Assembly (NCBI GenBank): GCA_964477505.1
Contig: CAYZDN010000007.1
Location: 1-31,017 of the forward strand
DNA: 31,017 nt
Source of the DNA: an uncultured Nitrosopumilales archaeon
GTDB lineage: Archaea > Thermoproteota > Nitrososphaeria > Nitrososphaerales > Gagatemarchaeaceae
Reading direction: 5' to 3'
Shown here: in pieces, positions 1 to 10,149 of the stretch
Position numbering within the stretch: position 1 is the first letter of the stretch
How the letters are laid out: each line of letters opens with the position of its first letter
Made by a program: the position numbers and the translations under genes
The notes under the pieces: model-generated
Database searches by the model: none
The model's input: the letters and a program-made list of their open reading frames with translations, nothing else
Told to the model about the DNA's origin: nothing

Positions 1-2
1 GT

Positions 3-284
3 GCTGTCCTTTACTCCCGTGGCATGACCCCTCTGAGGGTGCAGGACGTGGTCGCCAGCATGGACGGCGTCCTGGCCAGTCATGGCGTGAGGGAATTCCT
101 CCCGACAGAGGCTGCCGACGTCGTGGCAGCGGAGGAGCTACGGTCCGTTCACCCCTCGCTCGGATACTTCGACTCTCTGCACGCTGCGCCCGCAATGAGG
201 TTCGGCATCCCCATCCTAGGGAGCGAAGGAGCGTACGGCAGGGTTGGCGTCCCATTCCTGGATCTTGATAGGTACGGAGGCTAA
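3..284 (+). CDS. PIN-domain (VapC-like) toxin, C-terminal part; 5' end truncated by the window edge
   Basis: Frame is open from position 3 (AVLYSRGMTPLRVQDVV...). Contains the PIN C-terminal signature LGYFDSLHAA...ILGSEGAYGRV (family pattern FDxLHAAxA...ILSxDxxY). Confidence 0.7.
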   Translation, partial: AVLYSRGMTPLRVQDVVASMDGVLASHGVREFLPTEAADVVAAEELRSVHPSLGYFDSLHAAPAMRFGIPILGSEGAYGRVGVPFLDLDRYGG

Positions 285-363
285 CGAGCGATGGAATCTC
301 TAGGAGATCTACTTCTGTAATCCTGATCCCCAACAATCATGTCTACTGTCGGGGGTAGGCACA

Positions 364-382
364 TTCGAATCCCACCCCCGCA
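364..382 (+). repeat. Repeat R1: tRNA-Leu-like 3' fragment TTCGAATCCCACCCCCGCA
   Basis: Complete T-loop TTCGAAT, T-stem 3' strand CCCAC, acceptor 3' strand (one C short) and discriminator A. Confidence 0.8.
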
Positions 383-417
383 CATCCACAAACCCCCTTC
401 CAGATTCGTTCAATTAG

Positions 418-477
418 TATGATATGGCGGCCCACCGGGTAAAGCTTAAATGATATGCTACGATTTCGTAAGATATG
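418..477 (+). promoter_or_regulatory. Putative promoter/operator of the antitoxin-toxin operon
   Basis: TTAAA at 446-450, about 25-29 nt before ATG 475. Inverted repeat TACG-ATTT-CGTA at 459-470. GATATG occurs three times (421, 452, 472). Confidence 0.45.
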
Positions 478-843
478 GCTCAGTTACTGGTAAGGGTGGA
501 TGAAGACATCGCCAGGGAGATTAGAAGGATAGTCAAGGACAAGTACGGAGGAAGGAGGGGTGCCCTGAGCATGGTCGTCGAAGAGGCACTTAGGGGGATT
601 GTTTCACCCCCGGCTGAGATATCCGCAGGCTCCTTGCTAGAGGTGATTGACTACGTCTCCCGGGCTGCCAAGGAAGGGCAACCCAAGGACCAGATACTTA
701 CCAACGTCTTCCTTATGCTGGATCGGGGATTCGAACAGAGCATCGTGATGGGGGTAGAAGACATGCGGAAGGGAAGGGTGCGTGCAGTTCCCAAGGGTGA
801 GGACGCGGTCGAATTCCTCAGGGCGCTTGCGAAGCAGGCCTAG
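475..843 (+). CDS. Ribbon-helix-helix (CopG-like) putative antitoxin
   Basis: N-terminal MAQLLVRVDEDIAREIRRIV...LSMVVEEALR fits an RHH strand-helix-helix. The C-terminal EDMRKGRV...VEFLRAL tail is antitoxin-like. Lies 3 nt upstream of the toxin gene. Confidence 0.7.
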   Translation: MAQLLVRVDEDIAREIRRIVKDKYGGRRGALSMVVEEALRGIVSPPAEISAGSLLEVIDYVSRAAKEGQPKDQILTNVFLMLDRGFEQSIVMGVEDMRKGRVRAVPKGEDAVEFLRALAKQA

Positions 844-846
844 GCT

Positions 847-1119
847 GTGCCAAGGCGAGTCAGATACACCGAAGAATTTGTCAGGAGGTTCAGGGAATTG
901 ACAGTCTCGCAGAGAGGAAAAGTTGAGGAATCAGTCAGAGTGATTTTGTCGTCCGATGACCCTCGCGCCTTAGCTCATCACCTAGAAAGGAAGGCTTACT
1001 TCTGCAACTGGAGTCACAGAGTCAGGGGAAACCTGCTGGTGGTCTTCGGAATATCCAACAAAACACTGACATTCGTTTCCACCGGGACTCATTCACAAGC
1101 ATATCATCCAAGCCGATGA
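847..1119 (+). CDS. RelE/ParE-superfamily toxin, YafQ-like mRNA interferase
   Basis: 90 aa; starts RVRYTEEF, has HHL mid-protein and ends with the YafQ-type motif TGTHS. Confidence 0.75.
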   Translation: MPRRVRYTEEFVRRFRELTVSQRGKVEESVRVILSSDDPRALAHHLERKAYFCNWSHRVRGNLLVVFGISNKTLTFVSTGTHSQAYHPSR

Positions 1120-1177
1120 TGCAGGAATTCGGCCAAGAAAGCATGAGAACGTGCTTTGAGAACTACATGTATATCTG

Positions 1178-1194
1178 GAGTCCCACCCCCCGCA
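1178..1194 (+). repeat. Repeat R2: GAGTCCCACCCCCCGCA
   Basis: Direct repeat of R1/R3/R4/R5 with a full six-C acceptor strand. Confidence 0.85.
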
Positions 1195-1277
1195 CATTAG
1201 TTTCACGGAACTCCCTTCGTCCTGTGAGTTGTGTACCATCACAGCGGTGAAAGCGTCTCCGTTTGGCGTTCTGAACT

Positions 1278-1454
1278 CTATTTCCTGCTCAGGCGCTTCA
1301 GGCCCCTTCTTATGGTGAACAAGCTGGCCAGAGTCATTAGCTCGAATTCGGCATCTTCCCTCGAGCGCTCGAGAGCTCTCAGGATTCTTTTCTTGACTAC
1401 GGGGATCAGGTTGTCGACAAGAATACGAACGGATTCATCAACATCTTCATTCAT
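1278..1454 (-). CDS. Small hypothetical protein, 58 aa (below the ORF-track cutoff)
   Basis: Manual translation: MNEDVDESVRILVDNLIPVVKKRILRALERSREDAEFELMTLASLFTIRRGLKRLSRK*. Its ATG overlaps the upstream stop (ATGA, 1454-1451), which suggests translational coupling. Confidence 0.55.
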   Translation of the reverse strand: MNEDVDESVRILVDNLIPVVKKRILRALERSREDAEFELMTLASLFTIRRGLKRLSRK

Positions 1455-1591
1455 CTCTTGCGCAGCCTTGACATGTCGAGAGTCTCGTTAGCCCATCGCT
1501 CAAACTTGGCAGGGTCCTTTACGAGCGACTTTAGGGTCCTCATTCCTCTCTTGACGTCCTCGTCCAGCGTCTGTTCCTTCGCTCCGGTCAT
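1451..1591 (-). CDS. Small hypothetical protein, 46 aa (track ORF 1451-1708 with a probable later start)
   Basis: MTGAKEQTLDEDVKRGMRTLKSLVKDPAKFERWANETLDMSRLRKR*. TATA-like TTATTAGG on the minus strand at 1621-1614 is 23-30 nt before ATG 1591. Confidence 0.5.
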   Translation of the reverse strand: MTGAKEQTLDEDVKRGMRTLKSLVKDPAKFERWANETLDMSRLRKR

Positions 1592-1719
1592 TCGAGCGAC
1601 AGTTAGAGGCGGGCCTAATAAGTCCGTCTCCAAGTTCGCGGACACTCTGGAGGCATTGGAATGAAACTGTTCACAATATTCGCATTGAGCGAGGAAGGAT
1701 TTCCGCACAACACAATGTG

Positions 1720-1736
1720 AAGTCCCACCCCCCGCA
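1720..1736 (+). repeat. Repeat R3: AAGTCCCACCCCCCGCA
   Basis: Direct repeat, preceded by CACAACACAATGTG and followed by AATTACTTTCAC. Confidence 0.85.
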
Positions 1737-1835
1737 AATTACTTTCACTCTACCCCTGCTGATCCTTCAGGTGCATCAGATTGTGACGGATACCAGAATC
1801 GCCCTGGCTACCTTCTAAGAATCCAAGAGGTGTTG

Positions 1836-1851
1836 GAGTCCCACCCCCGCA
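1836..1851 (+). repeat. Repeat R4: GAGTCCCACCCCCGCA
   Basis: Direct repeat (one C short, as in R1), overlapped by the inverted repeat TCCAA-N6-TTGGA. Confidence 0.85.
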
Positions 1852-1948
1852 CTAGGCTACCTCGAAAGCGTCTGCTTCGAATATGATTTAGTGTGCTGAA
1901 GCTCCGGCGACCGCAAATCATAATACTGTAAACCAATGTGGTGGCTCT

Positions 1949-2200
1949 GTGCCCCGGTATATCGACGTGCACAAGGACATGAAGGGGGTCAAACTGAAAG
2001 ACGTGGCAGAGGCACACGCGAAGGACCTCAAGGTGCAGGGCAAATATGGAGTGAAGTTCCAGATGTACTGGCTCGACGAGAAGCAGGGAACCATATTCTG
2101 CCTGTCAGACGCACCGAACAGGGATGCGATCACGAAGGCGCACAAAGAAGCCCATGGGCTCCTTCCCCAAGAGACGTTCGAGGTTCAGGAAGGGAAGTAG
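1949..2200 (+). CDS. DUF4242 / SCO4226-like His-rich small protein (nickel-binding family)
   Basis: Pattern MPRYIDVH...AEAHAKDL...QGKYGVKF..YWLDE..GTIFCL.DAP...AHKEAHGL is typical of DUF4242. GTG start; AT-rich box at ~1919-1925. Confidence 0.85.
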   Translation: MPRYIDVHKDMKGVKLKDVAEAHAKDLKVQGKYGVKFQMYWLDEKQGTIFCLSDAPNRDAITKAHKEAHGLLPQETFEVQEGK

Positions 2201-2212
2201 ACCCCCTCCTCA

Positions 2213-2218
2213 TTTTTT
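2213..2218 (+). terminator. Possible archaeal oligo-T terminator
   Basis: T6 tract 13 nt after the DUF4242 stop codon. Confidence 0.35.
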
Positions 2219-2328
2219 GTCCAAAAGAATAAACCCTAGAACATTGTCGCCAATATTTCATGTTGCATTCCCGCCACCGCACCGCTTCTAATTCCAAGAC
2301 GAAGCTGCTTTGAACACAACAAATTGTG

Positions 2329-2345
2329 AAGTCCCACCCCCCGCA
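2329..2345 (+). repeat. Repeat R5: AAGTCCCACCCCCCGCA (last copy; likely boundary with the core chromosome)
   Basis: Direct repeat preceded by CACAACAAATTGTG. GC-rich ordinary genes resume just downstream. Confidence 0.85.
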
Positions 2346-2420
2346 TCTCTCCTCTGAGACACCGTACTTCGTATTCGCGATGGATTAAAAAGGGGAACTG
2401 GGGGGCGGGAAATTCAGTCC

Positions 2421-3236
2421 ATGCGAGCAAACATGCGCCGGCGGGAACGCAGAAAGAAGGCGCTGTACATAACCGCGGTCGTGGTGGTCGTCTTCGTCCT
2501 TGTTATCGGCGTTTACGTGGCCGAGAACCTCTCGGCGCAGGATCCCCTGATAGGGACTCCGGTCACGTCATCGAACTACATGTCGCTCTATAACATCGCG
2601 TCGTCGGCTTCCTACGGTTCCACCAACCCTTCCCTTGCGGGCTCGAGCTTCGTGAAGATCCCTTCGGGGACCTCGTGGTACGTCGGGTCAAAGCCGATCG
2701 TCGTCTACATAGGCGCCGAGTACTGCCCCTACTGCTCTTTCACCAGGTGGCCCCTGATAATCGCGTTGATGAGGTTCGGGAATTTCACAGGGCTCCAGTA
2801 TATGCAGTCGTCGTCCACGGACGTGTACCCCAATACGGACACGTTCACCTTCGTAGGCTCCACCTACACGAGCAGCTATGTCGTCTTCCAGCCCATCGAG
2901 CACGAATCCAGGACCCAGGGGAACTACCTGCAGTCAATCCCGTCCAACTACTCGAGCGTGTTCACGGGCTACGGCAGCGGGTACCCGTTCGTAGACATAG
3001 GGAACAAATACGCGGTCCCTGGAACCTTCTACGCCCCTGACTACCTCGGGAGCGGGAAGGGAGGGAACTGGACTCTAGACATTCAGTCGGTGGGTACCAG
3101 TGGGAGCCAGCTCTCCTATCGGGTGATGACGGCGGCGAACGCCTACACCGCGCTGATCTGCGCAGCGACCGGAGGGGACCCAGGGTCCGTCTGTAACAAT
3201 CCGGCCATCACGGCTTACAACAGCTCCATCCCGTAG
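2421..3236 (+). CDS. DUF929-family membrane-anchored thioredoxin-like protein
   Basis: Basic N-terminus plus one TM helix; IGAEYCPYC redox motif; ALMRFGNF; YPNTDTFTF; GYPF putative cis-Pro loop. Confidence 0.8.
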
Positions 3237-3650
3237 CTATGCTTCGTCCCCTAGCGTCAGCTTGATGGCGGGGACCCCCAACAGCAGCGCCAAGATGTGG
3301 TCAAGGGTGCAATAGAGGCAGATGGCGTCCAGCGCGAAGACTTCCGCGTAGACTAGGTACCCCACGAATATGACCCCAATCATCCACATCGGCATCAGCA
3401 CGTAGTTCAGAGTGGGATTGTTCAGCCACATCACGACGAGCATCCCTGCAAAGAACAGGACCCCCAAGAGGGCCACCGGTATGCCGGCGAACCTGCTGTA
3501 GCTGCTCGAAGTCACCAGGGCGCAGTTTATGGCACCTGAAGTTGGACAGTAGAGCTGGACCGACGGGAAGAGAGAATCGGAAAGGAGGTAGATGGCGTCG
3601 ACCAGGCCGACGGCCGACACAACGAGGCCGAAGAGCCTCCACCTGGCCAT
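3237..3650 (-). CDS. Vitamin K epoxide reductase (VKOR) family protein
   Basis: Four TM helices, loop cysteines CPTSGAINC, S-YS motif and active-site CLYC. Probable start is ATG 3650 (MARWRLFG). Confidence 0.9.
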   Translation of the reverse strand: MARWRLFGLVVSAVGLVDAIYLLSDSLFPSVQLYCPTSGAINCALVTSSSYSRFAGIPVALLGVLFFAGMLVVMWLNNPTLNYVLMPMWMIGVIFVGYLVYAEVFALDAICLYCTLDHILALLLGVPAIKLTLGDEA

Positions 3651-3726
3651 GGCTAGGCCCCCGACCTGGGGTATTTCGACTTTCAGAAGCAACACTTAAA
3701 GTCGAAAAAACAGGCTGCGTCGTCGC

Positions 3727-5283
3727 TTGCTTTCTCCCGGATTGGAGGCCAGGGACTACCAGAAGAGAATCGCTTCAGTCGCTGCCGTGACCAACACCCT
3801 GGTGGTCCTCCCTACGGGGCTGGGAAAGACGATGATCGCCATGATGGTGGCAGCCCAAATCATGGAGCAGCGCCCCGGCGCGAAGGTCATGGTCCTGGCG
3901 CCTACCCGCCCCCTCGTCCTACAGCACTTCAGGACGTTCCAAGAGGGGATGACGATCCCCAAGGAGTCCATGACTGCGCTCACGGGGACCGTCGACCCCG
4001 GAGAGAGGGAAGTGGCTTGGATGAAGTCGAAGGTCATCTTCGCCACCCCGCAGACGGTCTACAACGACGTCAGGCACGGTAGGGTCTCGCTGAAGGACGT
4101 GGCGTTAGCGGTCTTCGACGAAGCCCACAGGTGCGTGAGAGACTACACCTACACGAAGCTTGCGACGGCGTACAAGGAGTCGGCCGAGAGGCCTCTGATC
4201 ATGGGGCTCACAGCCTCGCCGGGGGCTTCGAAGGAAAAGATCAACGAGATCAAACGGAACCTGTTCATCGAAGCGGTCGAAGCGAGGAGCGAGGAAAGCG
4301 AAGACGTCAAGGATTATGTCGAAAGGACGAGCATCGAGACCATCAAGGTCAGGGTCCCAGACGAGTACTACGAGACCAACCTGAGGCTGAGGGAGCTGTA
4401 CAATGACAAGGTGAAGAAGCTGCTGAACGGAGGATTCTTGCGGAGCAACCGTGTCTCCAAGAAGGCGCTCCTCGAGGCGAGGATAGCTATCTCCGCGAGG
4501 CTCAGCAAAGCGCAGGCGAGCGGGGGACAGAAAGGGTACATCTTTGGCGCGATAATCAACCAGGCCCAGGCGGTCGCAATCCTGCACGCCCTCGAGATGA
4601 TAGAGACCCAGGGGGCGCCCCCCCTCCTGAGGTACCTGGACAAGATGAGGGACAGGCCGGACAAGGGAAAGGCGATCGCCTCGCTCGTAAAGGACCCGAA
4701 GTGGTTGAAGATGGAGGAGGAGGCGCTAAAGCTCGCTTCAATCCCGCACCCCAAGGTCTCCGTGGCGGTGGACGTGGTGAAGCAACTGCTTCGGAGAAAA
4801 CCCGATTCCAGGGTGATCGTGTTCACCCAGTACAGAGACACGATTGAAGACATAGTGAAAGCCCTTGACAAGGAGGGGGTCACGGCAAGGAGGTTCGTCG
4901 GCCAGGCCGACAGAGAGGGGAGCAAGGGGATGGACCAGGTACTCCAGTCGAAGACGCTGGAGCTCTTCCGGGATGGAGAGTTCAAGGTCTTGGTGAGCAG
5001 CAGCATAGGGGAGGAAGGGCTGCACGTCCCCGACGTGGACCTGGTCGTCTTCTACGAAGCTGTCCCTTCGGAGATAAGGTACATCCAGCGGAGAGGAAGG
5101 ACGGGGAGGACGACCGAGGGTCGGGTCGTCATCCTACTGGCGGAGGGGACCGTAGACGAGTCCTACTACTACAGCACCCTGCAGAAGGAGAGCCGGATGA
5201 AGGAGCTGGTCAAGGAGTCAGGGAAGAAGCCTTCGAAGCGAAGGGAAAAGAGTCCGACGTTGATGGATTTCGTAGGGAGCTAG
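3727..5283 (+). CDS. hef: Hef/FANCM(Mph1)-like SF2 helicase, without a C-terminal nuclease domain
   Basis: EARDYQ (Q motif), LPTGLGKT (I), FDEAHR (II), GLTASPG (III), SSIGEEGLHVPDVD (V), IQRRGRTGR (VI). Confidence 0.9.
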   Translation: MLSPGLEARDYQKRIASVAAVTNTLVVLPTGLGKTMIAMMVAAQIMEQRPGAKVMVLAPTRPLVLQHFRTFQEGMTIPKESMTALTGTVDPGEREVAWMKSKVIFATPQTVYNDVRHGRVSLKDVALAVFDEAHRCVRDYTYTKLATAYKESAERPLIMGLTASPGASKEKINEIKRNLFIEAVEARSEESEDVKDYVERTSIETIKVRVPDEYYETNLRLRELYNDKVKKLLNGGFLRSNRVSKKALLEARIAISARLSKAQASGGQKGYIFGAIINQAQAVAILHALEMIETQGAPPLLRYLDKMRDRPDKGKAIASLVKDPKWLKMEEEALKLASIPHPKVSVAVDVVKQLLRRKPDSRVIVFTQYRDTIEDIVKALDKEGVTARRFVGQADREGSKGMDQVLQSKTLELFRDGEFKVLVSSSIGEEGLHVPDVDLVVFYEAVPSEIRYIQRRGRTGRTTEGRVVILLAEGTVDESYYYSTLQKESRMKELVKESGKKPSKRREKSPTLMDFVGS

Positions 5284-6686
5284 GCCCGGCTCCCGATGAC
5301 CGAGACCTTGATCGTGTTGGTCGTCCCGATCATCCCGGGAGTCCCGGATGTCACCACTATGCGCTCCCCCTTCTTTGCCAGCCCGAGGCCTTCGGCCGCC
5401 TGGTCGGCCTGCTCGAAGAGACGGTCCAGGTCCTTCGCAGGCCTCATGACGACGGGAAGGACCCCCCGATAGATATTCAAAGTGCGGGCGACCCTTGGCT
5501 CGCTGCAGATCGCTACGATCGGGTGCGACGGCCGATACATCGAGACCCTCCGTGCGGTAGCCCCGGTCTGGGTCGGGGCCACTATCGCCCTAGCCCCCAC
5601 GTAGTCCGCAAGGCTGCATGCGGCTCTCGCGATGGCCGTGGCCGTTTCGGCAGACTCGGCCTCCGGAAGGCTGCGGAAGGACGGATGAAGGTCCCGCTCC
5701 GTCGCCCTAGCTATCTTGTCGAGCATCCGGACGGATTCCACGGGATACTTGCCGACCGTGGTCTCGTCAGAGAGCATCACCGCGTCGGTGCCGTCGAGGA
5801 TGGCGGTCGAGACGTCTGTGACTTCGGCACGGCTCGGGACGGGGGAGTTCACCATGCTCACCAACATCTGGGTCGCCACTATGACCGGTTTCCCTGACTC
5901 GTTGCACCACCTTATGACCGCCTTCTGAATCGTCGGCACTGTCTCGATGGGAGCCTCAATCCCGAGGTCCCCTCTGGCGACCATCGCCCCGTCGGCCTCG
6001 CCGATGATCTCGCGTAGGTTCGTGACCGCCTCCTTCTTCTCAATCTTCGCTATCAGGGTCGGGCCGCGGGGAGGAAGGAGCCCCCGGACAGCCCTAACGT
6101 CTGAAGGGGACCTCACGAACGAGATTGCCACGAAGTCGACCCCCTGTCGGACTCCGAACCTGAGGTAGGAGACATCCAGAGCGGTCGGGTAGGTGACTTT
6201 CAGCTTCACTCCGGGAGCGTTGACCCCTTTCCCAGAGCTCAGCACGCCGCCTGCGAGAACGACGCACCGGGCCGAAACTTGGCTCGCTTCTTCCACGCGC
6301 AGTCTTATCACGCCGTCTGCGAGGTGGAGGACGTCCCCTTTTTCCAAGGACTTCAAGAGGTCAGGGTTGTTGACCGGGACCTTAGCGGCGTCCCCCGCCA
6401 CGTCCGCCGACGTCAGCTCGACGATGGAACCACGCGCCAGATCGACCGAGCCATCCACGATCTTGCCTACGCGGATCTTAGGCCCAGGGAGGTCCTGGAG
6501 GATAGCGACCGTCCGCGCGGCCTTCTTTGCCTCGGTCCTGATCGTTCTGATCTCGTCGAGGTGGCTTTCCAGGTCGCCGTGCGAGAAGTTGATCCTGAAG
6601 ATGTCCACTCGAGGTATCAGTTTCCTTACGATCCTGGGGTCTCTGCTGGCCGGGCCGATGGTGCATATGATCTTGGTCTTCCGCAT
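5280..6686 (-). CDS. pyk: Pyruvate kinase
   Basis: RKTKIICTIGPAS, RINFSHG, QDLPGPKIR, IAKIE, MVARGDLGIE, VATQML, DAVMLSDET. The 3' end overlaps hef by 4 nt. Confidence 0.97.
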   Translation of the reverse strand: MRKTKIICTIGPASRDPRIVRKLIPRVDIFRINFSHGDLESHLDEIRTIRTEAKKAARTVAILQDLPGPKIRVGKIVDGSVDLARGSIVELTSADVAGDAAKVPVNNPDLLKSLEKGDVLHLADGVIRLRVEEASQVSARCVVLAGGVLSSGKGVNAPGVKLKVTYPTALDVSYLRFGVRQGVDFVAISFVRSPSDVRAVRGLLPPRGPTLIAKIEKKEAVTNLREIIGEADGAMVARGDLGIEAPIETVPTIQKAVIRWCNESGKPVIVATQMLVSMVNSPVPSRAEVTDVSTAILDGTDAVMLSDETTVGKYPVESVRMLDKIARATERDLHPSFRSLPEAESAETATAIARAACSLADYVGARAIVAPTQTGATARRVSMYRPSHPIVAICSEPRVARTLNIYRGVLPVVMRPAKDLDRLFEQADQAAEGLGLAKKGERIVVTSGTPGMIGTTNTIKVSVIGSRA

Positions 6687-7367: not shown

Positions 7368-8372
7368 TTGAACGACGTCATCTCCGTTGAGAAGCTCGAA
7401 GTGGTGTACGGGGACGGTACCCGTGCGGTCGACGGAATAGACTTCACAGTCGGTGACGGCGAATTCTTCGGATTCCTCGGCCCGAACGGCGCTGGCAAGA
7501 GCACGACGATCAAGGTCCTGACCACGCTTCTGAGGAAGACGGGAGGCAAAGCCACGGTGCTGGGGCACGACATCGGTTCCGCCGACAAGAAGGTACGGCC
7601 GCTCATCGGCGTCCAGAGCCAAGAGACCGTTGTGGACGGAGACCTCACGGGGAGAGAGAACATGATCCTCCAGGGCAATCTGCACGGCATGAGAGGTAAG
7701 GAGCTTGACGCCCGGGTTGACGAGCTCCTGAAGCTGGTCGAGCTGTCGGACGTGGCAGACAGAAGGGCCGCGTTCTATTCGGGTGGGATGAAGAAGAGGC
7801 TCGACCTGGCGTCGTCCCTCGTCCACAAACCCAAGCTCCTGTTCTTAGACGAGCCGACCACCGGGCTGGACCCCCAGTCCAGGGCCGGCGTCTGGAAATA
7901 CCTGAGGAAACTGAACAAGGAGGACGGAATCGCGATATTCCTTACCACCCAATACCTGGAAGAAGCTGACAAGCTCTGCGACAGGCTTGCGATCATCGAC
8001 CATGGCCAGATAATAACCGGCGGGTCGCCTTCGGAGCTCAAGGCAGAGATAGGCGCGGACGCCATAACGCTCAGCATCGAAGGGAACGGCGGGAACGTGG
8101 AGACCGCCCAGGGGGTCCTGAAAGGGATCTCGGGCATCAAGGAGGTCGTCCAGGGGGACGGTGGGATAACGGTCTACGCGATGAATGCGAGCACCCTCGT
8201 GCCCGACATAGTGAGGTCCTTCGACGCCAAAGGACTCAAACTCGCCTCCATCAATCTTTCGAGGCCAAGCTTGGACGACGTGTTCCTGAAGCACACAGGA
8301 CATAGAATAAGGGCGGAGGAGCTCGTCAGGCCCCAATCGAAGATGATGGGAAGGTTCGGGAGGAGGCACTAG
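7368..8372 (+). CDS. ABC-2 exporter ATP-binding subunit (DrrA-like)
   Basis: GPNGAGKST, YSGGMKKRL, LFLDEPTTGLDP, TTQYLEEAD. Confidence 0.95.
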   Translation: MNDVISVEKLEVVYGDGTRAVDGIDFTVGDGEFFGFLGPNGAGKSTTIKVLTTLLRKTGGKATVLGHDIGSADKKVRPLIGVQSQETVVDGDLTGRENMILQGNLHGMRGKELDARVDELLKLVELSDVADRRAAFYSGGMKKRLDLASSLVHKPKLLFLDEPTTGLDPQSRAGVWKYLRKLNKEDGIAIFLTTQYLEEADKLCDRLAIIDHGQIITGGSPSELKAEIGADAITLSIEGNGGNVETAQGVLKGISGIKEVVQGDGGITVYAMNASTLVPDIVRSFDAKGLKLASINLSRPSLDDVFLKHTGHRIRAEELVRPQSKMMGRFGRRH

Positions 8373-9873: not shown

Positions 9874-10149
9874 TTGGACAGGCCAGACCTCTACGTGGTA
9901 GCCAGGTTCCTGGACATACTCTACGAGCAGGGCACCCCAATGAAGAGGACCAACATCCAGATGCGCCTGGGGGTGAACTACCCAAGGTTCACAGAGTACC
10001 TCGAGTGGCTCCAGTCGAAGGGGTTCGTAGCCTTGGGGGAGGGACAGGACGACGGAGCCGAAGTCTTTTCCCTCAGTAACAAGGGGAACGAAGCATACCA
10101 CCGGATCGTAGACTGGATCCGTGAGACGATGGAAGGAATCAAACTGTAG
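9874..10149 (+). CDS. Small winged helix-turn-helix protein (predicted archaeal transcriptional regulator)
   Basis: KRTNIQMRLGVNYPRFTEYLEWLQSKGFV...FSLSNKG fits a wHTH. Confidence 0.85.
   Translation: MDRPDLYVVARFLDILYEQGTPMKRTNIQMRLGVNYPRFTEYLEWLQSKGFVALGEGQDDGAEVFSLSNKGNEAYHRIVDWIRETMEGIKL

Follow-up and report, generated by a model that had tools for sequence, protein, structure and literature searches.

An array of small integrase-less units bounded by tRNA-Leu 3'-end repeats in an uncultured Nitrosopumilales archaeon

The window analysed here is a stretch of 31,017 nucleotides from an uncultured Nitrosopumilales archaeon and represents the entire contig CAYZDN010000007.1 (G000:C7) of assembly GCA_964477505.1 (G000), a 57%-complete metagenome-assembled genome (MAG) of 599,449 bases whose source is a mine-drainage metagenome. 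At its left end lies an array of small units without integrase genes, separated by five co-oriented repeats designated R1 to R5. Copies of the motif CCCACCCCC(C)GCA start at positions 371, 1182, 1724, 1840 and 2333 of the plus strand, with start-to-start spacings of 811, 542, 116 and 493 bp; the places, strand and spacings given in a first-pass annotation, made from the sequence alone, were all reproduced. The motif CCCACCCCC followed by GCA is found five times within these 2 kb and nowhere else in the genome. R2 (1182–1194), R3 (1724–1736) and R5 (2333–2345, the final repeat ahead of the chromosomal flank) have the core CCCACCCCCCGCA, and R1 (371–382) and R4 (1840–1851) have the variant CCCACCCCCGCA with five C residues, one fewer than the 7-bp acceptor strand of the tRNA requires. 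Among the five repeats, the T-loop TTCGAAT is present at R1 only.

We compared the locus with 55 genomes of the Nitrososphaerales genus to which it belongs (G numbers denote genomes, C numbers after a colon contigs and L numbers loci). The core corresponds to the last 13 nt of intact tRNA-Leu genes ending in ...GGGTTCGAATCCCACCCCCCGCA, found at 24 loci in same-genus genomes, which bears out the earlier assignment of the repeat to the 3' end of an archaeal tRNA-Leu. Genes with this end carry the anticodons TAG, GAG and, with an intron, CAA, and one further intron-containing gene shares it. Co-oriented arrays of fragments lie behind many of these genes, and the TAG, GAG and CAA genes are all used. 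The 14-mer TCCCACCCCCCGCA was found in 52 of the 55 genomes, against zero to one match per genome for a reversed control pattern. Its copies are often clustered, co-oriented and 0.7–3 kb apart, including in the complete, closed single-contig genome G011, where the tRNA lies at 147317 and the fragments at 145106, 144086 and 142762. Eight copies occur within 18 kb in G009:C32, and further arrays are present in G059:C4, G060:C60, G041:C45, G041:C73 and G051:C30. An intact tRNA stands at the proximal end of the array in the relatives G011, G041, G059, G060 and G009.

ARAGORN predicted no tRNA in the window. Nor does the assembly of G000 include a matching tRNA-Leu; its only assembled tRNA-Leu (anticodon CAG, contig C2) ends in ...CCCTCCCCCCGCA. 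The tRNA-Leu of the window presumably sits beyond base 1, off the contig of this incomplete MAG; a tRNA matching the repeat, as the first-pass annotation supposed, does exist in the relatives. Many MAG contigs start or end at or near the core (G015:C23:1-14, G060:C62:1-14, G005:C22:127-140, G017:C121:127-140 and G060:C17:128-141, among others). Assemblies break at the core repeat, and consequently the arrays and their tRNAs, including the left end of the window, are under-represented in MAGs.

The first unit, u0, runs off the contig start and retains the C-terminal part of a PIN-like (VapC-like) open reading frame (ORF; 3–284, plus strand), with a Pfam PIN match below the cut-off (E 0.027, 15.5 bits). 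To the left of R1 lies an A-type element-side (P) arm that includes the T-loop (326–370, plus strand) and belongs to a type conserved over about 45–60 nt in at least 20 copies in G005, G009, G018, G041, G051, G056 and G060. Unit u1 (383–1181, plus strand) carries an RHH-type antitoxin-like gene (475–843) and a RelE/YafQ-like toxin gene (847–1119), matched by Pfam RHH_6 (E 0.005), YafQ_toxin (E 5e-5) and NCBIfam RelE_StbE (E 0.002), all below curated cut-offs. It is closed by a C-type P arm (GCTTTGAGAACTACATGTAT...GGAGT; 1152–1181, plus strand) that is 85–91% identical to arms at G005:C87 and G052:C88; the arm–core–arm junction at 1152–1206 is 91% identical to that of G052:C88. Unit u2 (1195–1723, plus strand) opens with the proximal arm CATTAGTTTCAC... 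(1195–1211), identical to the sequence right behind the intact tRNA-Leu(GAG) in G005:C87 and G041:C45, and ends in a B-type P arm (about 1697–1723); its two small ORFs on the minus strand (1451–1708 and 1278–1454) have no family match. Unit u3 (1737–1839, plus strand) is 103 bp long, has no ORF and consists of a B/C-type proximal arm (AATTACTTTCAC...) and a B/C-like P arm (1811–1839); the segment 1720–1775 is 79% identical to the 3' end and downstream flank of tRNA-Leu(GAG) in G005:C87. Unit u4 (1852–2332, plus strand) carries a gene of the SCO4226-like, nickel-responsive protein family (1949–2200; Pfam PF14026, E 1.3e-20; NCBIfam E 1.5e-22 with 79.4 bits, below the 125-bit cut-off of the model) and a B-type P arm (2305–2332) 89% identical to an arm in G011.

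From R1 to R5 the left arms are A-type, C-type, B-type, B/C-like and B-type; on the right, R2 and R3 are followed by the B/C proximal arm and R5 by chromosomal sequence. B/C is the dominant arm family in the window: u2 and u3 are complete units of this family, and in u1 and u4 a distal arm of B/C type is combined with a proximal arm from outside the family. No integrase is encoded by any window unit, and at both the nucleotide and the translated level the units resemble integrase-bearing elements only at the att junction. The first-pass annotation had described them as recombinase-free and had asked whether they were terminal fragments of large elements; the first description is confirmed, and no such fragment was recognized. 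When the proteins of u1 and u4 were looked up by exact match, all contigs retrieved came from the source sample.

The same organization is found throughout the genus. All-against-all BLAST of 41 core-bounded units from at least 20 loci revealed similarity only at the ends, in the first 50–200 nt and the last 30–60 nt, around unrelated interiors, and this similarity is paired by family, proximal with distal; the family-specific left ends measure 20–130 nt. For instance, L009 u2 and L028 u1 are alike at nt 4–133 and in their last 46 nt, L022 u2 and G009:C32 u1 at nt 5–96 and in the last 42 nt, and L021 u2, L021 u3 and L032 u1 have their first 50 and last 52 nt in common. At least four arm families can be distinguished: A, which keeps the T-loop GTTCGAAT within its 45–60 or so conserved nt; B/C, with the distal arm GCTTTGAnnAC...TGT...AGT and the proximal arm CATTAGTTTCAC; D, whose distal arm contains CCCAACATGTTGGG and whose proximal arm has a motif like it; and E, marked by TCTAACCTAAGGTTAGA. 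In a size census of 40 units the median was 1.37 kb and 31 units were below 2.5 kb, the bulk falling between 0.7 and 2.5 kb. An integrase is encoded by two of these units (10.7 kb and 5.6 kb), and tblastn found no integrase remnant in the other 38. Most units contain one to three accessory genes between conserved arm pairs. The 43 cargo ORFs with matches include alpha/beta hydrolases, SRPBCC, MFS, F420H2-dependent quinone reductase, SnoaL, RibD_C and nitroreductase proteins, as well as TetR, HxlR, PIN, DUF1801, glyoxalase and methyltransferase families; none of the 25 families listed for them is an integrase, replication or virion family. Cargo ORFs occur in both orientations relative to the core (33 genus units), and L016 u1 and L026 u1 have cargo in common and different arms.

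These observations bear on the possibility that the units are a graveyard, that is, the remains of full-size integrase-bearing plasmids or viruses which integrated at tRNA-Leu and lost their backbone, were never mobile as units, and changed the array only through decay and new large insertions. Full-size elements do integrate at these sites, as the 10.7-kb and 5.6-kb integrase units and an element of more than 10 kb with a D5 helicase testify; truncated or broken integrases occur in G060, several array-bearing genomes have no detectable integrase, and the window itself has two degraded cores (R1, R4), a unit of just 103 bp (u3) and two units whose arms do not match (u1, u4). An established precedent exists in Sulfolobus, where She and colleagues (2001/2002) reportedly described 'gene capture' by decay of integrated elements. 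However, random erosion should not spare both family-matched ends in most units and yet strip every backbone gene. Neither the cargo families nor the 38 units free of integrase remnants, nor the clustering of sizes at 0.7–2.5 kb, nor the restriction of similarity with integrase-bearing elements to the att junction is what such a history would leave, and in the same samples the same arms are joined to unrelated cargo, and at R3 the neighbour varies for a segment that is otherwise 100% identical. We consider this explanation a serious rival, if an unlikely one. Small integrase-less units with family-matched ends and unrelated cargo are the rule in the genus, which favours non-autonomous cassettes over plain erosion.

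To the right of the array, a DUF929 gene (2421–3236, plus strand) and a VKOR gene (3237–3695, minus strand), both assigned by Pfam, precede a conserved chromosomal flank formed by a Hef-like helicase gene (3727–5283, plus strand) and a pyruvate kinase gene (5280–6686, minus strand). The products of the latter two show 70–79% amino-acid identity to those of G004, G006, G011 and G056, where both genes are syntenic with tRNA-Leu(TAG); in G016 the Hef–pyruvate kinase synteny is kept and the stretch fetched contains no intact tRNA. This synteny indicates that the window shows the distal part of the array of tRNA-Leu(TAG). G006 represents an empty site, with tRNA-Leu(TAG) only 1.15 kb from Hef. In G004 the two are 5.5 kb apart, in G056 11 kb and in G011, where three fragments lie between them, 13 kb, and the intervening content differs among the genomes. 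The DUF929–VKOR pair is absent from the G006 site and present but inverted in G004; it may be an older captured insertion whose att site has decayed.

Variation was also seen at the level of the population. Logan contigs from three runs of one study were placed on window positions 1–4000; as assembled contigs and not raw reads, they indicate presence only, not frequency, and cannot reveal circles. Single contigs without mismatches span 280–1220 (R1–u1–R2) and 1630–3149 (R3–u3–R4–u4–R5 into DUF929), and the junctions within both segments are reproduced by independent contigs of the three runs. In run X3, a 624-nt contig matching 1720–2307 with 0 mismatches is preceded by the C-type arm of another unit: the neighbour switches exactly at R3, and the B-type arm of u2 is replaced. 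Other cargo is joined to the same arms at loose ends at 1152 and 1211, some of it clearly from a co-occurring G041-like relative; several metagenome contigs match the window from 1152 onward and diverge upstream of it. Contig depth in run X1 was 5.8 for the PIN unit u0, 17 for u1, 8–13 for u2 and 18 for u3–u4. The junction polymorphism at R3 is consistent with turnover of units, without being proof of it. The variability of the orthologous locus that the first-pass annotation had looked for is therefore present, both in the differing content among relatives and in a near-identical population that differs exactly at R3.

Could an assembler have produced the array by chaining or collapsing pieces of several coexisting relatives at a repeat they have in common? 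Depth is highest at the repeats, contigs of the G041-like relative attach to the cores, and the contigs of many MAGs break at the repeat. Nevertheless, we regard an artefact as very improbable: the independent contigs described above cross the two segments without a mismatch, the shared core and arm are together shorter than k = 31, and similar arrays exist in the closed genome G011 and in the main contig of the 100%-complete G056.

Integrase genes that abut the same core were found in relatives. They start about 10–50 nt from the tRNA-Leu core in G009:C76, G017:C121, G052:C88 and G043:C3, and in G060:C60 an integrase gene lies behind the third core of the array. The three tRNA-Leu-associated integrase families compared are only 23–24% identical to one another. 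In G009:C76, a 414-aa integrase begins 8 nt after tRNA-Leu(TAG), and the element also encodes a D5_N/DUF5906 primase-helicase; its layout is tycheposon-like or resembles that of phage-inducible chromosomal islands (PICIs). The proximal arm of the integrase element in G017:C121 matches that of D-family mini-units at 20 of 24 nt, which, at the level of sequence, is the sole direct link between a mini-unit family and an integrase. A reading of the enzymes as SSV-type 'suicidal' integrases (SSV, Sulfolobus spindle-shaped virus), with attP inside the gene, was rejected for the G009 family because the integrase ORF, which starts at an ATG after an in-frame TAG, is not partitioned and the arms have no codon periodicity. 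An integrase near a B/C proximal-arm site in G043:C12 is part of an element at tRNA-Glu.

All four copies of the integrase-primase element also conserve a non-coding block of about 115 nt (ACAAACAAACAACCATACACCCCCTCC...GGGCACTTCTCAAATTTCTCC), located at L043 15130–15247, L042 15414–15525, L046 14084–14201 and L047 10527–10649. In G060:C10 this block immediately follows an integrase gene of which only 116 codons are left. The block may correspond to an origin or to a small RNA.

Genome scans with PF00589 overlook divergent integrases: G056 gave zero matches, yet it holds a 39%-identical relative of the G043 integrase. We therefore speak of 'no integrase' only for genomes negative in both PF00589 and tblastn searches. 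In the nearly complete genomes G056, G059, G051 and G003 we observed no PF00589 match at E 1e-3 or better and no XerA-like recombinase, with the same limit of the scan for divergent integrases.

Rearrangement without any site-specific recombinase also has to be weighed. The 13–14-nt repeats and arms of about 30 nt would then act as microhomology for slippage or homologous recombination, and the arms would be conserved for some other reason, for instance as transcript ends or regulatory sites of the cargo genes. Arm palindromes are slightly more extensive than in random DNA (5.9 versus 5.1 paired bases, p = 0.002), no integrase was detected in many array-bearing genomes, and the cargo genes, lying in both orientations, must carry their own signals. 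Yet 13–14 nt are short for homologous recombination, the repeat is without exception an exact tRNA 3' end pointing the same way as the tRNA, several genomes have integrase genes adjoining this core, the arms are paired as proximal and distal like the halves of attP, and no Rfam family was matched. Together these points make the recombinase-free explanation improbable.

Structural interpretations of the arms were examined as well. Recognition of the arms as attC-like hairpins is not a reading we adopt: certain D, E, B and C arms of relatives contain conspicuous palindromes, the overall enrichment is modest and the palindromes of the window's own arms are weak. The R1 region was considered as a split tRNA, a tRNA pseudogene or a structured RNA; this was rejected, as the T-stem is absent and the inverted-repeat pairing is not kept across 14 copies, and neither ARAGORN nor Rfam returned a match for this region. 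A-type arms of the window (345–382) and of relatives keep a GGGGGT complementary to ACCCCC of the core, and a 6–7-bp stem around the T-loop is possible; this stem would have a minihelix-like shape without a T-stem and is conserved in sequence.

Taken together, we favour, with a probability of roughly 0.6, the interpretation that integrase-less cassettes accreted at tRNA-Leu and are mobilized in cis or in trans, in the manner of cis-mobilizable elements (CIMEs) or of tycheposon islands. According to this scheme, the array would be a tandem pile of small integrative units at the 3' end of tRNA-Leu(TAG), each composed of a proximal arm (P'), zero to two accessory genes and a distal arm (P). A junction would then read P, 13/14-nt tRNA core, P', which is the attP arrangement expected from tandem site-specific integration by tyrosine integrases. 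The enzymes may be supplied by autonomous elements that use the same tRNA-Leu core and encode an integrase together with a D5-type primase-helicase or with other cargo. Recombination between any two cores would insert, delete or reshuffle units, which may travel between cells either in cis, as a composite with an autonomous element (accretion-mobilization), or in trans after excision. Such integrases would act on the mini-units and circular intermediates would exist; the order of insertion is inferred as well, and the oldest unit may be the distal one, as the first-pass annotation proposed.

Several results weigh against this interpretation. G000 has no PF00589 match anywhere, and tblastn with four tRNA-Leu-associated integrases gave no credible match. 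Both searches were likewise negative in the array-bearing genomes G059 and G051, which are 94–97% complete, and mobilization by a resident enzyme is therefore impossible there. A search by proximal arm for the integrase of the B/C family covered 11 sites in six genomes, none of which adjoins an integrase. In the contigs available, neither an excised circle nor an empty-site junction nor integrase activity was observed. Erosion does occur, as truncated integrases in some arrays attest (for example that of 116 codons in G060:C10). The shortened C-run of R1 and R4 would break the identity of the crossover region, a circle formed by u3 would measure 116 bp and be too small to circularize alone, and internal deletions would be expected to produce arm mismatches like those of u1 and u4.

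For the first-pass annotation, the units were non-autonomous cassettes and the array a tRNA-anchored analogue of an integron. The former idea is supported by the family-matched ends and unrelated cargo, with signs of decay beside them, namely the five-C cores, the 103 bp of u3 and two units with ill-matched arms (u1 and u4). The latter holds as an analogy; the array is not a member of the integrons, and with at least four arm families and three divergent integrases it would not depend on a single enzyme.

Among known systems, CIMEs show several parallels. Pavlovic (2004) and Bellanger (2011) reportedly described these elements and their accretion-mobilization with integrative and conjugative elements (ICEs) in Streptococcus thermophilus. 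CIMEs too are att-flanked, have no recombination or transfer genes, lie in tandem with autonomous elements of the same site, and have been proposed to be mobilized by the integrase of a neighbour, as a composite or in trans. Unlike the arrays described here, they are bacterial elements linked to conjugation that typically occur singly and measure several kilobases, whereas in these Archaea long arrays consist mostly of 1–2-kb units with several arm families per array.

Tandem site-specific integration into tRNA genes, in which displaced pieces of the tRNA 3' end stay behind as attL and attR, provides the general frame. Integration sites in tRNA genes fall into sublocation classes, reportedly defined by Williams in 2002. 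The arrays share with such integrations the co-oriented direct repeats identical to a tRNA 3' end, the short att sites and, in relatives, the integrases that adjoin the regenerated tRNA. In integrated elements of Thaumarchaeota, att sites have a median length of 17 bp, 57% of integrations are in tRNA genes, and tyrosine-recombinase elements form arrays through re-use of sites (PMC6563490); for att-site lengths, Krupovic et al. 2019 cites She et al. 2002 (PMC6563490). Integrases or hallmark genes led to the discovery of those elements, which are complete proviruses, ICEs or cryptic elements (PMC6563490). In contrast, the arrays described here have 38 of 40 units without integrase, a median unit size of 1.4 kb and accessory genes between arm pairs.

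Tycheposons of Prochlorococcus offer a further parallel. Their autonomous form combines a tyrosine recombinase, a primase/helicase and cargo at a tRNA 3' end, a combination found here in relatives only (G009:C76). Neighbouring tycheposons are separated by a partial tRNA only, and more partial tRNAs are scattered in the islands (Hackl et al., bioRxiv 10.1101/2020.12.28.424599), which, like the present arrays, contain mostly cargo and little element backbone. Tycheposons differ in being bacterial and 10–20 kb long, and their island material 'lacks clear boundaries', whereas here nearly every unit keeps both arms and the core.

The resemblance to integrons is functional. Integron-like traits of the array are its small units, mostly of a single gene and each terminated by a recombination site, its cargo of accessory and toxin-antitoxin genes, a unit without ORF and an order that varies between populations. 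Archaeal integrons have reportedly been described by Ghaly et al. in 2022. Nevertheless, the array lacks every feature of integron membership that was tested (intI/attI/Pc, attC with its imperfect inverted repeat R''-L''...L'-R' and GTTRRRY core, and mostly promoterless cassettes co-oriented with Pc). There is no intI, attI or Pc, and the integrases of relatives sit behind the tRNA inside a larger element; the boundary is a 13–14-nt tRNA-Leu 3' end whose arms are linear, unlike the folded attC; cargo genes point either way; more than one arm family and several unrelated integrases take part; and the anchor is a tRNA gene, with at least three different tRNAs used in the genus. The locus is thus an insertion hot spot, integron-like in function and built from ordinary tRNA-targeting integration sites. 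In our literature search we found no paper describing such mini-cassette arrays in Archaea.

Other tRNAs serve as anchors in the genus. Co-oriented arrays with units of 0.8–3.8 kb are also built on a second core resembling a tRNA 3' end, TCCGACCCGCGGCA (acceptor GCCGCGG), with copies on the minus strand at 8298, 5225 and 4396 in L048 (G005:C83) and at 10133, 6288 and 3115 in L049 (G041:C81). A 73%-identical homologue of the u1 toxin-antitoxin pair in G005:C83 is bounded by TCCGACCCGCGGCA cores and ends in a C-like arm. In G007:C30 (L057), a tRNA-Lys(TTT)-like gene, which probably contains an intron and escaped ARAGORN, has its 3' end CCCGTCGGGCCCGCA repeated twice behind it (cores at 7752, 6058 and 2559, minus strand), and a 3.5-kb unit of this array carries two SCO4226-like genes homologous to that of u4. 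These arrays show that the architecture is used at several tRNAs and that cargo families recur in different att contexts. None of the 73–81% homologues of the u1 and u4 genes lies in a tRNA-Leu array, and some lie in arrays of the other tRNA-derived cores; for a copy adjacent to tRNA-Glu, no repeated tRNA-Glu end was found. A metagenome scan with the u1 antitoxin yielded 11 loci, none with the Leu core, and a search for the core in IMG/VR brought up nothing beyond unrelated tRNA-Leu genes of low GC content.

In peat metagenome contigs, the RHH/RelE-like module is flanked on both sides by a repeat of its own of about 25 nt (GGGTTCATTGCGCCTCCGCCGAGAAC). Copies lie at 3909 and 4694 in L178, at 1085 in L172, at 993 in L171 and in G005:C83, with a degenerate copy at about 1125–1150 of the window. 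The repeat does not depend on the tRNA-Leu core; the two toxin-antitoxin genes may accordingly form a nested module that is bounded in a different way.

A broader proposal, which we put forward tentatively and hold to be somewhat less probable than its negation, is that Archaea possess an independently evolved general platform for gene capture, equivalent to integrons in function. Single-gene cassettes with paired attP arms would be stacked, excised and exchanged by transient integrase-primase elements at Leu, GCCGCGG-acceptor and Lys-like tRNAs, and accessory genes would move as cassettes rather than as whole plasmids or viruses.

With the att arms and three candidate integrase families now defined, this organization is directly testable. 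The 13-nt core and the arm consensus sequences allow automatic detection of arrays in MAGs and account for the recurrent assembly breaks at tRNA-Leu. If the units are truly mobilized, non-ammonia-oxidizer-like Thaumarchaeota of soil and mine drainage would acquire and shuffle detoxification enzymes, regulators and toxin-antitoxin pairs at the level of single cassettes, and would do so without resident plasmids, viruses or recombinases. Such an exchange would also account for the tRNA-proximal regions as the variable parts of these small genomes.

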